64,000 nucleotides of DNA from Escherichia phage KKP 3954. The stretch lies in the sequence record OR067838.1, one strand, 5' to 3'. The notes under the pieces are model-generated. The model made no database searches. It was not told where the DNA came from and was given only the letters and a program-made list of their open reading frames with translations. Shown in pieces: positions 9,915 to 43,240 of the stretch. Made by a program: the position numbers and the translations under genes. The first letter of the stretch is position 1, and each line of letters begins with the position of its first letter.

Positions 9915-10100
9915 TCAACTAGGAATAATTTTATCCCTTTTGGTTTCATAACCAGTCCAATCTAAATCCTCCCAGCCTTCATCATCGTCTAACACATTGT
10001 CATCGTCATAAGATGCAATGTTATAAATAGAACGTGGATTACAAGACATACAATCTTTAATAGGCACATGATGCCATTTGCACGGATTATCACTAATCAT
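9915..10100 (-). CDS. hypothetical protein
   Basis: 61 aa ORF; GGAGG RBS upstream on minus strand. Confidence 0.45.
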   Translation of the reverse strand: MISDNPCKWHHVPIKDCMSCNPRSIYNIASYDDDNVLDDDEGWEDLDWTGYETKRDKIIPS

Positions 10101-10577
10101 TGCACACCTCCATTCTTGTTAAGATGTTTCATGTATTGTACTTCATACTAATCTATAGATCAAGTATTATTTATAATAATTTATTATTTTAATTGATAGA
10201 AGTTGATCTATACATACCAGTTCTGATACACTGTACCTGTTTGTTAGATCTAATAATTATTTATTATTAATATTTAATAATTATTAATCTAATACGAATG
10301 ACAATATTTGAGTATGAGAGTACTACATCAACAACCTAAAACCTTAACTCGCTGCGCTCGTTAATAGATTTCTAGGGTAGCATACTTCGAACACAAAAGT
10401 CAAGTGTTTTATTAAAATTATTTTCTGTGTGCAAAAACCTTGCTTAAACAGGTAGCAATAGTATAGCCTATAACATAAGCTTCATAAGAGGCTCGTAGAG
10501 CAAGTTTACTTACTAGGTAAGGTGATTTATCATCTTATATATAAAAAGTGCGTCAGAGACGCGTTTAGGAGGCTAGA
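10101..10577. promoter_or_regulatory. AT-rich divergent intergenic control region
   Basis: 477 bp non-coding between minus and plus gene blocks; 12-bp perfect palindrome GATCTATAGATC, AT-rich direct repeats, GCGTC-AGA-GACGC hairpin before first plus-strand RBS. Confidence 0.5.
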
Positions 10578-19837: not shown

Positions 19838-20956
19838 ATTAGCGGTTATATTTTAATTAAACCTGAAGATCTTCATTTATATGTCAACGAAGAAACAATA
19901 GCTGCAATTGATTATGATCAGATCGCTTTCCAAGCAGCGTCTGCATTAGAGAAAAGAACAATCATTGCGAAGCACATCCCTTCGGGTGCTCAAAAGGAAT
20001 TTAAAAATAAGACAGAGTTTTGGGGTAAAAGCAAGACTAAAATTGGAGGTTGGCTAGGAGATACAAATGCAGAAAGAGCCTCCAAAAACAAACGTCCCTT
20101 CACAAAGGAAGAGTTCGAAATCATTGATAAGCAATACCCGCCAGAAGATATCGGACACACCTTCCAAGCAGCTAAAACAAAAGTCTTAGGTATTCTAAAA
20201 CATCTACGTTTAGAAAAATATTGCGGAGTTATTGGCGTAGGAAAAACTTTCAGACACGCCTTCAAAATGCCCGTAGAATATAAATCTGAACGGTTAGATA
20301 TCAAACCACTTCAGCTTTCAGAAACCAAAGATTATCTTGTGGAATTCCACAATGGTGATGTTGTTACTGTAATAGAGGCTGACGATGAGTTGGAGAAATA
20401 TGGTTTCCAGGGTTATAAAGATTATAAAAGGACGGGTAAATTTTCTTATATCGTAGTGTCTATCGATAAAGATAGTTTACATACTCCTAGTATCCTTTTT
20501 AATTTCTACAAAGAAGATGGAGTCTTTAAAAACCCAGATATAATTCTTATTGATGAATCTATTGGCGACATATGGATCGTAGATAAAGGTAAAAAGAAAG
20601 AAGTTAAAGGTTGGGGCAGTTACTGGTTAGCATATCAAATGCTAATGGGAGATAAAACAGATAGTATCCGACCTTATCAAGATTTTGATATTAAGTTTGG
20701 AGATATTACTTGTTTTAATCTTCTTTCAGCTTGTAAAACTCAAGCAGAGCTTTTCCAAACAGTTAAAGATACTTACTACTCATGGTTCCCAGATGGTGTT
20801 AATTTTACTTCTTGGGATGGAGAAGAAGTCCATATGACAACAGATGAATGGATAGAAACAATTTTCCAGTTGGTATACATGAAACGCTGGGATAATGACG
20901 ATACAACATTTGAGAGTATGCTTCAGTCATACATCTCACAACAGGAGGCAGAGTGA
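19838..20956 (+). CDS. rnh: RNase H / 5'-3' exonuclease (T4 rnh-like), apparent non-AUG start
   Basis: Frame open from 19826; IAAIDYDQIA, EADDELEKYG, VVSIDKDS, LMGDKTDSI resemble T4 RNase H acidic clusters; no ATG/GTG/TTG in frame before 20267; GGGGG RBS then ATT. Confidence 0.55.
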   Translation: MSGYILIKPEDLHLYVNEETIAAIDYDQIAFQAASALEKRTIIAKHIPSGAQKEFKNKTEFWGKSKTKIGGWLGDTNAERASKNKRPFTKEEFEIIDKQYPPEDIGHTFQAAKTKVLGILKHLRLEKYCGVIGVGKTFRHAFKMPVEYKSERLDIKPLQLSETKDYLVEFHNGDVVTVIEADDELEKYGFQGYKDYKRTGKFSYIVVSIDKDSLHTPSILFNFYKEDGVFKNPDIILIDESIGDIWIVDKGKKKEVKGWGSYWLAYQMLMGDKTDSIRPYQDFDIKFGDITCFNLLSACKTQAELFQTVKDTYYSWFPDGVNFTSWDGEEVHMTTDEWIETIFQLVYMKRWDNDDTTFESMLQSYISQQEAE

Positions 20957-21603
20957 GCAGATTAACAGAAGAGCAGAAAGCAGATATCCTTAGTATGAGT
21001 GCAGAGGGTATGTCTTCTCGCAATATTGCAGCAATTGTTTTAGGTAGTCCAACAAGAAAAAGCACAGTAAATGATTTCCTTGCACGTTTCGGTGCAAGTA
21101 AACAAGAGCCAGTTAAAAAGAAACAACCAGTTATTAAAATTATTGATGTTGAAACTGCACCAGAGATTGCATATACTTTCCGTCGATTCAAAGCCTTCAT
21201 TTCTCCAGACCAGGTAATTCGTAGGGGTTATTTGTTATCTTACTCTTCTGCTGATTTGTATACAGGTGAAGTAGAAGGTAAGAACTTATCTTCTTATCCT
21301 CTTTTCGATATCGATCATACAGACGATTGGGAGCTTTGCCAAGATCTTTGGAACCTTCTGAATGAGGCAGATGTAGTTGTGGCACACAACGGGTATAAGT
21401 TTGACCGTGCATACATTAACCAACGATTTGCATATCACGATATGGCTCCTCCTTCTAATTATGTAGTTGTTGATACATTGAAGGCAGCTAAGAAACAATT
21501 TGCACTTCCTTCCAACTCCCTTAAAGAAATGGGAGCATATTTCGAAACAGAAAGTGAAAAACTGGATAACGAGGGGTTCCCCTTTATGGAAAGCATGTTG
21601 TGA
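20953..21603 (+). CDS. DEDDy-type 3'-5' exonuclease with N-terminal HTH, N-terminal part (frame-disrupted)
   Basis: Exo I IDVETAPE, Exo II VVAHNGYKFD; reading frame ends at 21603 before Exo III. Confidence 0.55.
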   Translation: MSRLTEEQKADILSMSAEGMSSRNIAAIVLGSPTRKSTVNDFLARFGASKQEPVKKKQPVIKIIDVETAPEIAYTFRRFKAFISPDQVIRRGYLLSYSSADLYTGEVEGKNLSSYPLFDIDHTDDWELCQDLWNLLNEADVVVAHNGYKFDRAYINQRFAYHDMAPPSNYVVVDTLKAAKKQFALPSNSLKEMGAYFETESEKLDNEGFPFMESML

Positions 21604-21913
21604 AGGTGATCGTGATGCTTTTGAACGTATGCAGATTTACAATGATGGCGATGTTGTTTCACTCCGTGATTTGTATATGAAAATCCTTCCGTGGATTCCA
21701 CAGCATCCTAACTTATCCGCTTATTACCCAGATGAGAAGGTCCGTTGTTCTCGTTGTGGCAGTGATCACGTTCACGTTGTTACTGGTAAACAATACCACA
21801 CTGCGGTAAGTTCTTTCGATATCATTCGTTGTGAATCTTGCGGAGGTTTGTCACGTAGTAGAGCAAACACCAGATCCAAGGATAAACGAGCAGCAACTAT
21901 CATCGGAATCTAA
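21500..21913 (+). CDS. C-terminal part of the same exonuclease in another frame
   Basis: Exo III-like YNDGD; Cys-rich zinc-ribbon tail CSRCGSDH ... CESCGG. Confidence 0.45.
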   Translation: MHFLPTPLKKWEHISKQKVKNWITRGSPLWKACCEGDRDAFERMQIYNDGDVVSLRDLYMKILPWIPQHPNLSAYYPDEKVRCSRCGSDHVHVVTGKQYHTAVSSFDIIRCESCGGLSRSRANTRSKDKRAATIIGI

Positions 21914-23400: not shown

Positions 23401-24009
23401 ATGCAGATAGTATGTGATTGGGATTTAGTTGTGGCTCCGTTAGATGTTGCTTGGTTAGAATGGTTGAATAAGATTAGTGGCCTTGGTGTTAAAATCGACA
23501 CATTCACAAAAAATGCAGATTATGATCTTACCAACTATTTTCCTGGTTTCAGGGAAGAGTTCAACATAGATCCTTACGGATTTCTGGATAATCCTCATCT
23601 CTACGATACAATGGGTTTTGTTCCAGGTATGCCAGATTTCTTAAAGTATGTTTCAAGGAAAGGTAGCAATCTTTTGATCGCGAGTGTGACAAAAGGTGGT
23701 CACTTAAGTTCTAAACATAAACATGTTTTAAGAACATTAGATACGATTGATTTTAGCAAAGGATCTGGTAACGGCTTTTTTGCTACGAAAGAAAAATACT
23801 TATTACCTTGTGATATAGCAATAGATGACAGGGCTGATAACCTATTATATTTTCCAGATGAAGTAGTTAAAATATATTTTAATACACCTTATAAAGATAA
23901 CCATCTAGAAGAACTAAAGAAAAAACCAAATGTTGTGATCACAGGTTTAGAAGATCAGTGGCTAACATGTTTGGATGTTTTTAACACTTTGAACAATTTT
24001 AAAAACTAA
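23401..24009 (+). CDS. 5'(3')-deoxyribonucleotidase (HAD superfamily)
   Basis: 202 aa; HAD motif I VCDWDLVV (DxDxV) and C-terminal AIDDRADN. Confidence 0.55.
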   Translation: MQIVCDWDLVVAPLDVAWLEWLNKISGLGVKIDTFTKNADYDLTNYFPGFREEFNIDPYGFLDNPHLYDTMGFVPGMPDFLKYVSRKGSNLLIASVTKGGHLSSKHKHVLRTLDTIDFSKGSGNGFFATKEKYLLPCDIAIDDRADNLLYFPDEVVKIYFNTPYKDNHLEELKKKPNVVITGLEDQWLTCLDVFNTLNNFKN

Positions 24010-24019
24010 GGAGAAAAAA

Positions 24020-24433
24020 ATGACAAAACAGATTTCGGCTAGTATTATTGCACATTCCATCACTGAAGACGGAAAAGAGATTGTAACTTTCGAACTTGAA
24101 TATCCACGTATTATTCATTCAGAACTGATGACTCACCGCCTGTTCAGTCGTAACGCTGCTTCTAGCCGTGCTATACCTGTTAAAACACTGATCGAAATGG
24201 TGCGAAATCAGCCTGCTCGTCCTTATCGTTTTGGTGCTAACCAACCTGGTATGCAGGACAAAGGTGTTGACCATGATGCTCTTATTGATGCAGGTTATAC
24301 TGCTCAAGAGTGGTGGGATCTTGCCGCGCTTAGCGCAGCACGTTTTGCAGAAGAATTCTCTTTGGCAGGGAATACCACAAACAAGTTGCAAACCGTCTTC
24401 TGGAACCTTTCCAACGAATTAAAACAGTTCTGA
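24020..24433 (+). CDS. ThyX-like protein, N-terminal reading frame
   Basis: THRLFSRNAASSRAIP resembles the ThyX RHRxxSxxxxSxR motif; frame ends at 24433. Confidence 0.45.
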   Translation: MTKQISASIIAHSITEDGKEIVTFELEYPRIIHSELMTHRLFSRNAASSRAIPVKTLIEMVRNQPARPYRFGANQPGMQDKGVDHDALIDAGYTAQEWWDLAALSAARFAEEFSLAGNTTNKLQTVFWNLSNELKQF

Positions 24434-24501
24434 CAGCAACAGAATATGAAAATTTCTGGTGGCTACGTGATGACAAAGAAGCCGATCCTACTATCGAAGC
24501 T

Positions 24502-25020
24502 TTGGCTAAAGAGATGCACAAAGAGTATGAAGAATCTACACCAGAAGTGCTGAAACCAGGGCAATGGCACACACCTTATGTAGACCATTTCTATGATAAT
24601 ATTGGCACAGAAGGTGACGATCATTTTGTTTTTGGTGGATACTACGTTCAAGATGAATCTGGAGAAGTTGTTGTGCTTACTTTGGAAGAAGCTAAAGCTA
24701 TTTCAGCTTCGTGTTGTGCACAGGTTAGCTATCGTCGTTTGAATGCAACTAAAGATAAAGCTTTAGATATTTATGGTCGTTTGCTAACTGGGCGCAAGGT
24801 TCATGCTTCTCCATTTGAACATCAAGCCACCCCAATGCAAGAAACATGCGAACAATACGGAGAGAACTGTTTTGAAGATTTGTTTATCAATGCTCCTTGG
24901 GATTTTAACTCTTGGGAACCAGGTATTACCCATGTAGATCGTAATGGTAAGTTTTGGTCTGGCAATTTCAAAGGTTGGATTCAACATCGTCAACTTTTAA
25001 CAAATCATACTAAATGGTGA
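24502..25020 (+). CDS. ThyX-like protein, C-terminal reading frame
   Basis: Frame open from 24334, overlapping upstream frame by about 100 nt; ENFWWLRDDKEADPTIEAL and HASPFEHQ are ThyX-like. Confidence 0.45.
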   Translation: MAKEMHKEYEESTPEVLKPGQWHTPYVDHFYDNIGTEGDDHFVFGGYYVQDESGEVVVLTLEEAKAISASCCAQVSYRRLNATKDKALDIYGRLLTGRKVHASPFEHQATPMQETCEQYGENCFEDLFINAPWDFNSWEPGITHVDRNGKFWSGNFKGWIQHRQLLTNHTKW

Positions 25021-25796: not shown

Positions 25797-28037
25797 TTGA
25801 TTCGTTTTGTAACTAAATCTAATGGTAAGACAGAGGAGTTTAACCCAGAAAAACTTCGCAAGTGGTCTGAATTTGCAGCAGGTAAACTAAACTGGTCTGA
25901 AATTGAATTAGAAGCTGTGAAGCGGTGTTATGACGGTGTGTCTACACGTGATCTGCATAAAGCAATGATTGCAGCGTGTATTGACAAGAAAACACAAGCT
26001 TACAGTGATATGGCAGGAAGACTTCTTCTAGGTATGATTTACAAACAGGCTCATGGGGGATACCACAGTATCCCTTCACTGAATACCTTTTATCATGATA
26101 TGGTAGAACGTGGACACTGGGCTAAAATGGATTATACTGATGAAGAGATCAAAGAAATCGGTAAGATTGTAAAGCATAATAAAAATCTAACTTATGGTTA
26201 TTCTGTTTTACGTCAGATGGTAGATAAATATCTTATTCGAGATGCAGTAAACGATGTGGTGCATGAGTCTCCACAGTTTCTTTTCATTGGTATCGCAATG
26301 AAGGTTATGGAGATCCAACCAAAAGAACGCCGTATAGAAGATATTAAAAAACTTTATACTTATGTTAGCGATCTTAAGATTAATCTGCCATCGCCGTATC
26401 TGACAACTCTACGAACTCCAATCAAAGGAAGTGCGTCTTGTTGTTTATTCCGTGCAGATGATACGGCAGAGTCTTTAGCCATTGCTAATTACTTAGCTCA
26501 TGAGTATACATTGAATAACGCAGGTATTGGTGTTAATCTTCAAACTCGTGCCACAGGTCAAGGTGTTAAGAATAATCGTATTATTCACGGTGGTCTTCTT
26601 CCGTATCTGAAATGGATGGAAGATAGTGTTGGAGCTTCAAAGCAAGCAAGCCGTGGAGGTAGTGCTACAGTTACCTTTACCATACTTGAACCAGACTTCG
26701 ACGATCTGATTCGACTGAAGAATCCAACAACACCTATAGATAAACGAGTGGATAAACTAGATTATTCTATTGTTGTTAACCGTTCGTTCTTGCGTCGAGC
26801 AGCAAAAAACGAAGACTGGATGTTAGTTAGTTGTGATGATGCTCCTGAACTTTATGAAGCTTTATATAAAAGTGAAGAAGAGTTTGATGCAGTTTATGAC
26901 AAAGTAAGTCGTCGTCGCATTAAGAAAAAATTTGTTAAGGCTCGTGATCTTCTGACAGAGATTATTGTTCAACGTGCAGAAACAGGACGTATTTACATGT
27001 TCTTTGCTGACAACGTTAACAACCATACACCTTTCTTGGATACGGTGTATCAATCAAACCTGTGTCAAGAGATCTTCTTGCCAACTAAAGCTTTCCACAG
27101 TATGCCGGATCTCTTTACTGGTGAGAATACAGAAGATCAAGAATTGGCTTTATGCTTCTTATCTTCTATTGTTGCTGGTCGTGTATTACCTGAAGAATAT
27201 GAGGATGTTGCATACTACACTGTATTGACAATTGACAACGTTATTGAAACAATGGATTATCCATTTAAACATAACGAAATAACTGCTAAAGCACGTAGAT
27301 CTATTGGTGTAGGTATTACAAACTTAGCGCATTACTTGGCAAGTAATTTTGTAAATTATTCAGATGCTTATGCTAAAAAATTAATGCATGAACTTGCAGA
27401 ACGTCATTACTTTTGGTTGGCAAAAGCCTCTCTGCGTCTGGCTAAGGAAAAAGGTAATGCGGAATGGATCGATAAGACAAAATGGCCTCAAGGTTGGCTA
27501 CCAATTGACACCTATGCTAAAACAGTAGATAGTATCGGTAATTTTGATCTTAAAATGGACTGGGAAGGCTTACGTGCTGAAATCATTGAACAAGGTGGTA
27601 TCCGTAACAGTGTATTGGCTGCTATTGCACCTAATGAGTCCAGCAGTTTGGTAAGCAATACTACTAACTCTCTGTATCCTGTTCGTGATACCATTATGTA
27701 TAAACAAAGTCAGAAAGGTAGTGTATTATTTATTGTTCCAGACTACGAAAAACTGAAAATGTTCTACCAATCTGCCTGGGATACTCCGGCTAAAGACCTT
27801 GCAGAAATGTATGGTATCTTTACCAAGTTTACTGACCAAGGAATTTCTTGTGATTCTTGGCTAGATTATTCTAAATTGGTAGGTGGACGTTTATCCGTGA
27901 AAGCTGAGATGCAGTTTATTTTGAATTTTGCTAGACTGGGTGGCAAATCATTGTATTACCTTAATAGTAGAACAAAATCAGCAGACTCTTTAGCACAAGA
28001 AGATTCTGATGGTGGTTGTGAAGCTTGCAAGATGTGA
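25797..28037 (+). CDS. nrdA: ribonucleotide reductase class Ia alpha subunit
   Basis: 746 aa; TTG start after GGAGGAG; N-terminal ATP-cone VTKSNGKTEEFNPEKL; active-site SNLCQEI; C-terminal CEACKM. Confidence 0.85.
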   Translation: MIRFVTKSNGKTEEFNPEKLRKWSEFAAGKLNWSEIELEAVKRCYDGVSTRDLHKAMIAACIDKKTQAYSDMAGRLLLGMIYKQAHGGYHSIPSLNTFYHDMVERGHWAKMDYTDEEIKEIGKIVKHNKNLTYGYSVLRQMVDKYLIRDAVNDVVHESPQFLFIGIAMKVMEIQPKERRIEDIKKLYTYVSDLKINLPSPYLTTLRTPIKGSASCCLFRADDTAESLAIANYLAHEYTLNNAGIGVNLQTRATGQGVKNNRIIHGGLLPYLKWMEDSVGASKQASRGGSATVTFTILEPDFDDLIRLKNPTTPIDKRVDKLDYSIVVNRSFLRRAAKNEDWMLVSCDDAPELYEALYKSEEEFDAVYDKVSRRRIKKKFVKARDLLTEIIVQRAETGRIYMFFADNVNNHTPFLDTVYQSNLCQEIFLPTKAFHSMPDLFTGENTEDQELALCFLSSIVAGRVLPEEYEDVAYYTVLTIDNVIETMDYPFKHNEITAKARRSIGVGITNLAHYLASNFVNYSDAYAKKLMHELAERHYFWLAKASLRLAKEKGNAEWIDKTKWPQGWLPIDTYAKTVDSIGNFDLKMDWEGLRAEIIEQGGIRNSVLAAIAPNESSSLVSNTTNSLYPVRDTIMYKQSQKGSVLFIVPDYEKLKMFYQSAWDTPAKDLAEMYGIFTKFTDQGISCDSWLDYSKLVGGRLSVKAEMQFILNFARLGGKSLYYLNSRTKSADSLAQEDSDGGCEACKM

Positions 28038-29998: not shown

Positions 29999-30007
29999 GG
30001 AGAACTG

Positions 30008-30493
30008 ATGCGCTATCTGGTAACAGGTGGTCTTGGTTTTATTGGGAGCGCCGTGGTGCGCTCTCTTTGTCAAGATCCTAATAACGAAGTTTTTATCATT
30101 GATAAAATGGGTTATGCAGCAGACATTGAGAATGTAGGTGATATCACTCACGCTAAACTAAGCATGACAGATTTGGCAAACGAAGCCCAGGTCAAAAGTT
30201 TAGTAGTAGAGTGCAATCCCGATTTCATCATTCACTTAGCGGCAGAGAGCCATGTGGATAATTCTATCAAGAATCCACGAGCTTTCATCGACTCCAATAT
30301 TATTGGTACATACAATTTATTGGAAGCTGCAAGGCTCCTCCCAAAGAATAAACTGAAGATGTTCATACACGTCTCCACAGACGAAGTGTATACGGTGATA
30401 TGGCAGACTCTGGCGTTCCCTTTACCGAAGAGACAGCTTATGCCCCTTCAAGCCCGTACAGTGCGTCTAAGGCAGCATCTGACCATCTTGTGA
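30008..30493 (+). CDS. rmlB: dTDP-glucose 4,6-dehydratase, N-terminal part (frame-disrupted)
   Basis: VTGGLGFIGS Rossmann motif; HVSTDEVY then frame loss. Confidence 0.65.
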   Translation: MRYLVTGGLGFIGSAVVRSLCQDPNNEVFIIDKMGYAADIENVGDITHAKLSMTDLANEAQVKSLVVECNPDFIIHLAAESHVDNSIKNPRAFIDSNIIGTYNLLEAARLLPKNKLKMFIHVSTDEVYTVIWQTLAFPLPKRQLMPLQARTVRLRQHLTIL

Positions 30494-31002
30494 AAGCTTG
30501 GCACCGTACCTACGATTTACCTGTTGTGATAACCAACTGCTCCAATAACTTTGGACCCTATCAACATCCAGAAAAGCTGATCCCAAAAATCATCACAAGT
30601 ATCTTGACGAATAAAGAGATTCCGGTGTATGGTAAAGGCGATCAGGTGCGAGACTGGCTTTTTGTTGAGGATCATGCGCGAGCTATTCTTCAAGTGGCAA
30701 CAGGTGGAGAACCAGGTAAAACGTATAATGTGGGAACACGTAATCCCAAAACCAATATGGAGATCATCTATATGGTTTGTGACTACATGGATGCTGTACA
30801 TCCAGAAGCAGGAACCTACCCTTCTTCCAACTTGATAACTTTTGTTGAAGATCGTAAAGGGCATGACTTGCGTTATGAAATCAATCCTTCTAAGATAGAG
30901 TTTGAACTGGGTTGGAGTGCAAACTCTACATTTGAACAAGATCTCTACTCAACGATTGAATGGTACTTAAACAACCCTCAATGGTGGAGTGGGAAGATTT
31001 AA
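30400..31002 (+). CDS. rmlB: dTDP-glucose 4,6-dehydratase, C-terminal part in second frame
   Basis: [32 protein letters not shown] (catalytic YxxxK region) open from about 30388; about 2 nt extra at GTGTATACGG. Confidence 0.65.
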
Positions 31003-31010
31003 GGAGGGCT

Positions 31011-31889
31011 ATGAAAGGTATTATTTTGGCGGGAGGAAGTGGAACCCGCCTTCATCCGGTAACACGCAGTGTGAGCAAGCAATTGCTCCCTGTGTATGAC
31101 AAACCCATGATCTACTACCCTTTATCGGTATTGATGTTGGCTGACATTAAGGATATCTTAATCATTACCACACCAGGCGATCAGGAAGACTTTGAGTATC
31201 TTCTCGGAGATGGGTCTATGTTTGGGATAAAACTCACTTACGCAATCCAATCCGAGCCACGAGGTCTTGCGGACGCTTTCATCATCGGTAAAGATTTTAT
31301 CGGAGAAGACTCTGTTGCTCTTATTTTAGGTGACAACCTATTCTTCGGACAAAGCTTTGGTAAACTACTGATTAACGCCAGTGAGATGGTAGATGTTTGT
31401 GGCGGAGCTTGTATCTTCGGGTATTTGGTGAAAGATCCTGAACGATTCGGTGTGGTTGAATTTGGGAGTAATCGTCAAGCTATTTCTATTGAAGAGAAAC
31501 CTGAAAATCCTAAATCAGATTATGCTGTCACAGGTTTGTATTTCTATGATAACTCTGTTGTTCAACGTGCATTAGAAGTAACCCCTTCCGCGCGTGGAGA
31601 ACTGGAGATCACAGATATCAATCGCAGCTACCTCGAAGACAGGAAGTTACAAGTGGAAGTTCTCGGACGAGGATTTACTTGGCTTGACACAGGAACACAC
31701 GCCAGTCTGATGGAAGCTGGTCAATTCGTGCAGACTATTGAGAACCGTCAAGGATTGAAGATTGCGTGCCTGGAAGAAATTGCTTTCAAAAAAGGGTGGA
31801 TTTCTTTAGAGACTTTGTTGTATCATGGAAACTCACTGAAGAAAACAGAATACGGGCAATACCTACTCAAATTAGCGGAGAGAAAATGA
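31011..31889 (+). CDS. rmlA: glucose-1-phosphate thymidylyltransferase
   Basis: Track ORF 30960..31889; AGGAGGG RBS supports start [14 protein letters not shown]. Confidence 0.8.
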
Positions 31890-32452
31890 AAGTAGAAAAA
31901 ACAAAAATTGAAGGTGCGGTAATTATCAAACCAGACGTTTATAAAGATGATCGTGGTTTCTTTTTAGAAACATATAATGAACAAAAATACGAAGATATCA
32001 TTGGTAGACAAACTTTCGTTCAAGATAACATGTCTAAATCAAACTTCGGTGTTTTGCGAGGAATGCACTTTCAAACAAATAATCCGCAAGGTAAGCTTGT
32101 TCGTTGTGTAAGTGGGGAAGTATTGGATTTCGCTGTAGACCTACGTAAAGATAGTCCTACTTACGGTGCTTGGGACGGTGTTGTTCTTCGTGCACGACAC
32201 CATACACAGTTCTGGCTTCCACCTGGTTTGGCACATGGTTTTATAGTGCTGAGTATGGATGCTATCTTCGAATACAAATGCACAACTCCATACGACCCTT
32301 CCAGCGAACAAAGTTTACGTTGGGATGATCCTGATATAGGGATTGATTGGGGCTTCGATATGATTTTTGACGAAGATTTTAAACCTATCTTATCAACAAA
32401 AGATGCAATGGCTAAGTCTTTTCAACAGCTACGTAGCGAGGGTGTATGCTAA
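31886..32452 (+). CDS. rmlC: dTDP-4-dehydrorhamnose 3,5-epimerase
   Basis: Track ORF 31766..32452; start [10 protein letters not shown] overlaps rmlA stop (ATGA); cupin-type motifs DDRGFF and RGMHFQ. Confidence 0.75.
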
Positions 32453-33288
32453 CATATCTGGTATTGGGTGGTAATGGACAACTGGGACAAGCTTTACGTA
32501 AAGTGGCTCCTTCAAATGTGTCTTTAATTTATCCTAAAGAACGTGTAGATATTACAAATTTTGAAGCTGTGCGAAACGCTATTGTTGAAGATTATGTAGA
32601 TGGTGTTATTAATTGCGCTGCTTATACGGCTGTAGATAAAGCAGAACATGATTTTGCTACTGCTTTGGCTGTTAATGCCTATGGCCCTGCAAATACTGCG
32701 GCAGTGTGCAGCAAACTTAAAATTGATTTTGTGCATATTTCTACAGACTATATTTTTAATTATTCTCATCCTATTTTTGAAGATACTACACCTAACCCAA
32801 TAAACAATTATGGGTATACGAAAGAACTTGGTGAAAAAATGGTGCGAGGAGTTAACCCAAATGCATATATTATTCGAACAGCCTCGGTATATAGCGAATT
32901 TGGAAATAACTTTCTAAAAACCATGTTGTCTCGCTATAATGATGGACAACGTGATTTTATTATTGTTGCTGATCAGTTCTCTTGTCCAACATATGCCCCA
33001 GATTTAGCAGAAGCTATTTTTGAAGTATTAAAAACAGGTTGGTCAAGATCTGTAAAGACTTACCATTTTGCAGGAAGCCATCTTATTTCTTGGGCGGAGT
33101 TTGCGGAAAAGATCTTGACACAGATGCCAGAACCTGTTAAGATATCGGCGGTATCAGCTTCAACCTATAATGCTCCAGCAGCACGTCCGGTGAAGTCACA
33201 ATTAGTAACCAGTCACTATCTTACAAAATCAGATTTAAATAAAGGTATTGAACGGTCTTTAGCAGTATTACTTAATAAGGAGAGGTAA
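32446..33288 (+). CDS. rmlD: dTDP-4-dehydrorhamnose reductase
   Basis: 280 aa; N-terminal LGGNGQLG Rossmann motif; completes B-A-C-D order. Confidence 0.75.
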   Translation: MLTYLVLGGNGQLGQALRKVAPSNVSLIYPKERVDITNFEAVRNAIVEDYVDGVINCAAYTAVDKAEHDFATALAVNAYGPANTAAVCSKLKIDFVHISTDYIFNYSHPIFEDTTPNPINNYGYTKELGEKMVRGVNPNAYIIRTASVYSEFGNNFLKTMLSRYNDGQRDFIIVADQFSCPTYAPDLAEAIFEVLKTGWSRSVKTYHFAGSHLISWAEFAEKILTQMPEPVKISAVSASTYNAPAARPVKSQLVTSHYLTKSDLNKGIERSLAVLLNKER

Positions 33289-33548
33289 TGGAATTTGTAA
33301 TTTTTGGTAAACCTAACTGTCAATTTTGCGAAATGTCAAAACAACTATTAACCATGCGCAATAAACAGTTTGAATATTTAAGTCTTGACCAAGACTACGA
33401 TTTAGAATCAATGACTAAAACAGTTGTTGATCTTACCGGAGTTCCTCCACGCACATTTCCACAAATTCTGTCTGAAGTGAACGGGGAGGTAACATACGTA
33501 GGCGGTTTTACCGAACTGCGTGATCTCATGGCTCAAATTGCGGAGTAA
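33288..33548 (+). CDS. glutaredoxin / NrdH-like thioredoxin (T4 NrdC-like)
   Basis: 86 aa; CQFC active site near N-terminus; ATGA overlap with rmlD. Confidence 0.7.
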   Translation: MEFVIFGKPNCQFCEMSKQLLTMRNKQFEYLSLDQDYDLESMTKTVVDLTGVPPRTFPQILSEVNGEVTYVGGFTELRDLMAQIAE

Positions 33549-36280: not shown

Positions 36281-36716
36281 ATGTTACAAGTTCCTGCTAA
36301 GTTTGTTGAAGGCGCTATCCACTCTTACCGTCAAACATGTAAGAGGGCAAGAAACTGTTTAGATGGTCTGGTGGCAAAAACCTATACTGTTGAAAAAGAA
36401 AAAACGTTGGTTTGGCAAAGATGTTTACGAAGTTAATATTTTTGGTGAACATAAACTAAACCACGATACTCCTGAAAACATGTTAGAAATATTTCTAAGA
36501 GATGACAAAATATCTCCTATGGATTACCAACTTTTAAAATTTTATGATTCTTCTTTGGCTATTGATAAGTTTGTTGAAGATATTCTGTCTAGAAAAACAG
36601 ATAAAAACACTTATCCTCTAGAGGCTGATCAAATAGGATTATTAAACGAGATTTCATCCTTTAAAGAGTTGGATAATATTACAAAAGAGGAGATTTTAGA
36701 TGGCATTAGATTATGA
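36281..36716 (+). CDS. hypothetical protein, frame-disrupted at a poly(A) run
   Basis: Strong RBS TAGGAGATTAATA-ATG at 36281 (frame open to about 36436); track ORF 36363..36716 in another frame; frames overlap across AAAAAGAAAAAA. Confidence 0.45.
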
Positions 36717-42296: not shown

Positions 42297-43240
42297 ATGG
42301 TGTTAATTGGTAGCCGTGCATTGCAAATTCATGCTATGGACATGGGAAAAGACTTGTATCGCCCTTGTGTAGATTTAGATTACCTGTGTATACAGAACAA
42401 GAGTGGGAAGAATTATCAAAAATGTTCTCTCAAGAGGAGTTTGTTGAACTTGTAGAACGTAAAGGAAACAAAGGCCATGTCAAAATGATAGCTGGTGCAC
42501 ATTTGGAATACGATATTGCTTCTCAAGGAGATAGCACAGAAGCTTTGATTAGTTATTGTGAAGATTCTGATGATGTTCGTCGAACTTACGCTGGACATGT
42601 TGTTGCTCCTTTAGATGTGCTCTACCTTCTTAAAATGAGTCATCGTTTTAAAAAGGATAGTCCTCACTTCTTTAAAACTATGAAAGATATTCATTTCATG
42701 CGATCACTAGGTGCAAAGATCCCAGAAAATCTTAAGAGTATTTATGAGTTGCGTGAGAAAGAAACATACACTTACTCTCATCCAAACTTAAACGTGAGAA
42801 GTAAAGACTTCTTTAAAGGTGATGAGGTTCCGTATGTTTATGATCATGACTCTATTCATGAAGCAATCGCAGTAATGGATGCTCCAGCATATAAATCTTA
42901 TATGAAAGATGGAAGTGAAGTTATGACCAGCAAAGAAAAGTTTTTTGCTCAACCAAAACATGTGCGCCTGTTAGGTGTTTATGAAGAAGCGTGCGTTTTG
43001 GCTTTGGAACGTTCACAAATTCCTTTCGGTGAAGAGATCGGAGGTCCAACCCCTAAGCAAAGTTTTATGATGGCTTTATCTAAAGTTTGCACATCTATCA
43101 CTAGTGGTTGGTTTAGGGAATATGCTTGGGAGAACTTTTATATTGTTACTAAACTATATGAAAACATGGGTGAAAACGACTATGTTGAACGTTTTAAAGC
43201 TAATCAACATGTAGTTAAGCCTTTTGAAGGAGGTTATTAA
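42297..43240 (+). CDS. hypothetical protein, frame-disrupted near its 5' end
   Basis: Strong RBS AGAGGAGAAATATT-ATG at 42297 (frame 0, about 52 codons); main 291-aa ORF 42365..43240 in another frame, open from 42314. Confidence 0.45.

Follow-up and report, generated by a model that had tools for sequence, protein, structure and literature searches.

A ThyX-like gene split across two frames in Escherichia phage KKP 3954 carries a private two-nucleotide insertion in a GTAC site

Phage genes that are spread over two overlapping reading frames can point to programmed recoding, to an enzyme made in two pieces or simply to a gene that is broken in one sequence, and a ThyX-like locus in Escherichia phage KKP 3954 (OR067838.1) raises the question of which of these applies. 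We analysed a stretch of 64,000 nucleotides of this record (the window), in which all features of the locus lie on the plus strand. A ribosome-binding site, AAGGAG, and an A-run ending in ATG (24008–24020) can be read directly from the sequence; in the alignment the A-run is longer by one A (listed at 24014) here than in any of the four relatives used for comparison. The first ORF (ORF1) runs from ATG 24020 to TGA 24431–24433 and its 137-aa translation contains MTHRLFSRNAASSRAIP, the ThyX-type arginine/serine motif that the original prediction had pointed out. The downstream frame opens at 24334, right behind a stop at 24331–24333, and ends with the stop at 25018–25020; it contains ENFWWLRDDKEADPTIEAL as well as the predicted HASPFEHQ. 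Relative to ORF1 this frame is shifted by −1, which equals +2, and the overlap, given earlier as about 100 nt, counts to exactly 100 nt. Against the Pfam Thy1 profile (PF02511, cut-off 24.8 bits) the two halves alone give sub-threshold scores of 14.3 and 19.3 bits, and the joined protein reaches 35 bits (E = 1.6e-8), which bears out the earlier view that both frames are ThyX-like.

The window belongs to a Phapecoctavirus genome (phAPEC8/rV5-like, Stephanstirmvirinae), for which many relatives are available. Searching with 1.2 kb around the gene gave 64 phage records that cover 80% or more of the query, almost all of them 95–99% identical to it, and in the annotated records that we inspected the orthologue is a single 999-nt CDS of 332 aa, labelled 'putative' or 'FAD-dependent thymidylate synthase'. 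Phapecoctavirus orthologues (phAPEC8_00113, AFU62686.1; REC_00172, UPW40210.1; anhysbys_201; rV5 gp106) share approximately 98–99% nucleotide identity with the window gene and have the same neighbours, an NT5C-like nucleotidase upstream and nrdA and nrdB downstream; the sole difference in kind is an ORF-splitting 2-nt insertion, AA, at 24371–24372. In the alignment, the GGGTACC of the relatives, which includes both a GTAC and a GGTACC (KpnI-type) site, has become GGGAATACC in the window (GGG^AA^TACC). The insertion is present in none of the 64 close relatives, because a 61-nt query across the site aligns over 59 bases in all of them. Furthermore, neither RefSeq E. coli genomes nor PLSDB plasmids contain a match to the AA allele, its exact 28-mer is absent from IMG/VR, GTDB genomes and JGI metagenomes, and the exact ORF1 product is absent from the public gene index. 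The wild-type 26-mer is found on one IMG/VR contig, on which the ORF is intact.

The locus reads as native codons 1–117 (24020–24370; translation, Pfam and hhalign), which include T38-H-R-L-F-S-R-N-A-A-S-S-R50, followed by an out-of-frame ORF1 tail of 20 aberrant codons, NTTNKLQTVFWNLSNELKQF, and TGA (24371–24433), with native codons 118–332 and the stop continuing in the −1 frame (24373–25020; translation and alignment). Codons 118–332 hold the invariant R125, N144 and R149, a probably relocated module (SASCCAQVSYRR...KVHASPFEH, residues 228–267) and a beta-rich C-terminal tail. When AA is deleted a 332-aa ORF is restored; the original prediction rightly took the two frames to belong to a single ThyX-like protein and joined them by a −1 change of frame. 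The restored ORF differs from that of phage REC at nine codons, all of them synonymous and seven of them downstream of the lesion. Non-synonymous versus synonymous codon differences downstream of the lesion are 0 versus 7 against REC, 0 versus 8 against anhysbys and 0 versus 4 against SF1-1. In these three comparisons there is none of the decay expected of an old pseudogene, which means that the lesion is either very recent or not real.

An indel whose length is not a multiple of three relative to intact orthologues, and whose removal restores the full ORF, is what a frameshift lesion or an assembly indel looks like. We are confident that the ThyX-like locus is a normal single-ORF gene for a 332-aa flavin-dependent thymidylate synthase-like protein, conserved across the rV5/phAPEC8-like phages and cut here by a private AA in a GTAC/GGTACC site, with no recoding involved. 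What splits the gene in this one sequence is either an error made in sequencing or a mutation that inactivated it very recently. An intact single ORF on resequencing had been named in advance as the outcome that would overturn the split-gene prediction, and 64 independently sequenced relatives effectively supply that outcome. The feature is an ordinary finding, a private insertion in a well-known and widely annotated phage gene; its use is that programmed frameshifting loses a false candidate and that one phage genome is flagged as holding a probable error or pseudogene. If the AA is present in the phage DNA, the product would be a 137-aa fragment in which 117 native residues are followed by 20 aberrant ones; the residues that correspond to the dUMP-binding arginines (R125 and R149) and the HxSPFEH module would be missing. 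With a real insertion the enzyme would thus be dead and the phage would rely on the ThyA of its host.

The gene lies where the original prediction had put it, beside a deoxyribonucleotidase and nrdAB. The upstream neighbour is an NT5C-type 5'(3')-deoxyribonucleotidase (23401–24009, plus strand; Pfam PF06941, 26.1 bits versus a cut-off of 24.8), and downstream follows nrdA, encoding the large subunit of a class Ia ribonucleotide reductase (25797–28037, plus strand; from the ORF list and orthologue annotation), and then nrdB. A tblastn search with an E. coli ThyA probe found no ThyA-type gene within the window. Further downstream, at approximately 30000–33300, a full dTDP-rhamnose pathway (homologues of rmlB, rmlA, rmlC and rmlD) is located beside glutaredoxin and nucleotide-metabolism genes, and the relative SF1-1 lacks rmlB and rmlA. 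Judging by annotation, host surface or DNA modification are candidate roles for this pathway.

That the intact protein belongs with ThyX is visible through Pfam, hhalign and structure comparison only; a search with the intact protein and a 48-sequence profile against PDB sequences returned no ThyX. The Pfam Thy1 alignment pairs residues 22–175 with profile positions 59–191, and hhalign pairs residues 23–174 with canonical ThyX 65–211 (E = 5e-8). An AlphaFold2 model of the intact protein, built on 48 homologues, has a pLDDT of 84 and a pTM of 0.83, and the top Foldseek matches of this model in the PDB are only ThyX/FDTS and the homologue PolB (probability 1.0), with approximately 161 aligned columns against Thermotoga maritima ThyX. 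As modelled, the intact protein has the ThyX fold. The family is large, with 6,908 proteins in one search and 5,002 representatives of 50%-identity clusters in another, and the members listed are mostly single chains of 300–345 aa.

The counterpart of the ThyX signature RHRxxSxxxxSxR is T38-H-R-L-F-S-R-N-A-A-S-S-R50, which has five of the six defining residues; the first arginine is replaced by threonine in all 48 aligned homologues. Canonical ThyX (PF02511; T. maritima TM0449, M. tuberculosis ThyX and PBCV-1 A674R) and the homologue PolB, a UMP/dUMP methylase, have the HxSPFEH motif and conserved counterpart residues in common with the phage protein, which is about 110 residues longer than canonical ThyX. 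In T. maritima numbering, the alignment shows the counterparts of H79, R80, S83, N85, S88, R90, R147, N169, R174 and the H53-to-H59 motif to be conserved, and R78, E86 and Y91 to correspond to T, A and A in the phage protein. Taken from its sequence, thymidylate synthesis by the annotated family is plausible. For rV5 gp106, thymidylate synthase is given as an annotation (PMC3606486), and we found nothing more specific than this annotation in the literature on ThyX in rV5-like phages.

The original prediction had suspected that HASPFEH might sit outside the canonical ThyX order, and this was well founded. In canonical phage ThyX (n = 7), HxSPF(E/R)H is located approximately 25 residues before RHRxxSxNExSxRY. 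In the phage protein, VHASPFEH occupies residues 260–267 (HASPFEH 261–267), approximately 220 residues after T38-HRLFSRNAASSR50, so the canonical order, with the HxSPFEH module ahead of the RHR motif, is not present. Using hhalign, residues 228–267 align with the canonical N-terminal residues 23–61 (AARVS...HxSPFEH) at E = 1e-4, a score that was reached by two of 150 column shuffles. Behind this module, the C-terminus forms a beta-rich tail some 60 residues long, with the invariant positions G301, T303, H304, W312, S313, N315, G318, Q321, R323 and Q324. We think it probable that the N-terminal module of ThyX has moved behind the catalytic motif in a manner resembling a circular permutation. 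This case is made by the sequence profile and the motif, because the AlphaFold2 model of the C-terminal part alone is poor (pLDDT 70, pTM 0.39) and gives no significant Foldseek hit; Pfam likewise finds nothing in the C-terminal 157 residues (176–332) on their own. A permuted ThyX is not described in the literature that we searched. By its sequence, the protein annotated as 'thymidylate synthase' in rV5/phAPEC8-like phages looks like a permuted ThyX, about 330 aa long, in which another residue takes the place of the first signature arginine.

How the AA came to be in the sequence is informed by other differences between the window and its relatives, which we compared with Ro121, phAPEC8, SF1-1 and ukendt over approximately 49 kb for indels and substitutions, quantifying GTAC over 7600–56000. 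Each of the three clean 2-bp indels falls within a GTAC that the relatives carry intact: 24371 (GGG[AA]TACC), 30389 (GTG[TA]TACGG) and 42389 (GTG[TA]TACAG). The TA insertions at 30389–30390 and 42389–42390 are private and each turns a GTAC shared by all relatives into GTATAC. The former splits a dTDP-glucose 4,6-dehydratase (rmlB-like) gene into ORFs 30008–30493 and 30400–31002, and the latter puts the 5' part of a hypothetical gene of 313 aa out of frame, leaving ORF 42365–43240. GTAC itself is depleted about fivefold (36 sites observed versus 171 expected). In the window, 51% of the GTAC sites of Ro121 are altered, compared with a median of 8% across the 256 tetramers and 22% for the next highest. 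The window lineage has 12–14 private GTAC losses versus 0–2 in each relative, and 19 of its 535 lineage-specific substitutions fall in GTAC (2 of 335 in Ro121; 2 of 603 in phAPEC8). Most of these substitutions change the first base (G>A) or the fourth (C>T), in some sites both, which gives ATAT, and the private GTAC alleles that were tested are found in 0 of the 64 relatives. Private GTAC-destroying substitutions comprise 4–5 synonymous and 3 non-synonymous changes, which is too few to separate mutation from error.

The GTAC-specific changes, i.e. transitions at the outer G:C pairs and 2-bp insertions, are either the trace of a long-read assembly corrupted by DNA modification or a record of restriction pressure, and either reading bears on how phage genomes of the rV5/phAPEC8 group are interpreted. 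The literature that we searched contains nothing specific on GTAC avoidance in these phages. Separately, at approximately 10060–10320 the relatives carry about 11 GTAC sites within some 260 bp of mostly non-coding sequence, despite the genome-wide depletion, and in the window this cluster is mostly erased through G>A changes and small indels.

Weighing error against real lesion on the assembled sequence alone, we lean slightly towards a consensus error, in which DNA modified at GTAC would have led a long-read consensus to miscall some of the sites. All window-private indels are insertions. One of them, CCC to CCCC at 21579, breaks the conserved gene for a 3'-5' exonuclease/DNA-polymerase exonuclease subunit (ORFs 20953–21603 and 21500–21913), and another, AAAA to AAAAA at 36393, frameshifts a further ORF; private indels that are all insertions, homopolymer +1 cases included, suggest consensus errors in the assembly. 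The private GTAC changes also have the R/Y, reverse-complement-motif and partial-penetrance pattern of methylation-induced nanopore errors, which are reported to be R/Y transitions that strike a subset of the sites of reverse-complement motifs (PMC11610573). Double changes at several GTAC sites and a ThyX-like gene free of any decay fit the same explanation. However, a 2-nt insertion outside a homopolymer is not a classic sequencing error, and a real cut followed by fill-in explains equally well that all three 2-bp insertions are in GTAC and that two of them give exactly GTATAC. Moreover, window-private substitutions overall number 225 synonymous versus 81 non-synonymous, which indicates that most private differences of the lineage are real evolution and not noise.

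The same ratio counts in favour of a genuine, very recent lesion in the phage DNA, in a lineage whose GTAC sites were being erased under restriction selection, and we regard this as a serious possibility, at a little below even chances. The depletion of GTAC, the high share of altered sites and the excess of private losses over those in any relative are all as such selection would leave them, and the three genes hit (ThyX-like, dTDP-glucose 4,6-dehydratase and the hypothetical protein) are plausibly dispensable. On the other hand, the private homopolymer frameshifts in conserved genes of the same sequence suggest consensus errors, the double changes at several GTAC sites (ATAT, or a substitution together with an insertion) are not predicted by stepwise selection, and 36 GTAC sites are still present in the window.

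More specifically, the AA could be a restriction scar, left when a host enzyme cutting G^TAC (Csp6I/CviQI-type, with a 5'-TA overhang) was followed by fill-in and blunt ligation, a reading that we consider possible though less likely than not. Fill-in and ligation, which the phage polymerase and an ATP-dependent ligase could for instance perform, would duplicate TA, destroy the site and cost the phage a dispensable gene. The annotation includes a phage-encoded ATP-dependent DNA ligase, and at 30389 and 42389 the sequence is the exact fill-in product, GTATAC. The insertion in the ThyX-like gene, however, is AA rather than TA and does not match that product, and no cognate GTAC-cutting enzyme is known for the host. 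Extended to all three insertions (24371, 30389 and 42389), the proposal would be that they are in vivo restriction scars of a lineage that met a G^TAC-cutting system and lost three accessory genes, surviving by end fill-in and re-ligation, with a dozen more GTAC sites erased by point mutation. We consider this unlikely as a whole, although if true it would mean that escape from restriction through imprecise end repair had left its trace directly in the genome.

Very little speaks for the idea that a programmed −1 ribosomal frameshift at TTAAAAC (24419–24425) fuses the frames into a functional ThyX-like enzyme. The 100-nt overlap and the −1 relation of the frames fit such a mechanism and A_AAA would in principle permit single-tRNA(Lys) slippage; the original prediction had called this A-rich tract compatible with slippage. 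However, the two-frame layout is not kept in the relatives, 64 of 64 of which need no shift, and in which the sequence downstream of TTAAAAC is simply the inside of an ordinary ORF. A heptamer scan finds no X_XXY_YYZ in any phase across 24334–24433, and the 80 nt of RNA 3' of the tract (24426–24505) fold at −15 kcal/mol versus a shuffle mean of −14.0 (z = −0.34), i.e. without a stimulatory structure. TTAAAAC is also not the junction: the ORF-restoring junction is codon 117/118, about 47 nt further upstream, at the 2-nt insertion that the relatives lack. A slip at A_AAA would yield NTTNKLQTVFWNLSNEL instead of YHKQVANRLLEPFQRI (16 residues), with ...SNELKTVLTATEYENF... as the expected junction peptide, and the lost segment contains K120, Q121, N124, R125, L126, E128, P129 and Q131, all invariant in 48 homologues. 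Known programmed −1 sites of phages and bacteria (dnaX A_AAA_AAG; the G/GT of tail-assembly chaperones) have overlapping −1 frames and an A-rich tract like the window, but unlike them the window has an unconserved layout, neither an in-phase heptamer nor a stimulatory structure, and a shifted product that loses invariant residues. Recoding at TTAAAAC is contradicted by the single ORF of the relatives, the missing heptamer, the z score and the lost invariant residues.

ThyX active sites are at subunit interfaces and two fragments could in principle complement each other, but we give next to no credence to a split enzyme assembled from two separately translated polypeptides, given that the downstream frame offers no start codon before TTG 24502, which lies 69 nt 3' of the end of ORF1 and lacks a Shine-Dalgarno sequence, so that separate synthesis of the downstream part is unlikely and would give a product beginning at residue 161, without R125, N144 and R149; that the break falls directly after helix 95–115 and just before helix 120–130 of the AlphaFold2 model; and that a split at the same point is found in 0 of 64 close relatives and in none of the database homologues listed.

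The records that match the ThyX-like locus include some labelled Campylobacter phage B15, Acinetobacter phage vB_AbaM_ABPW7, Klebsiella phage ZCKP1 and 'Dompiswa phage'. They share approximately 98% identity with E. coli phapecoctaviruses there, and the hosts given in their labels may be unreliable.
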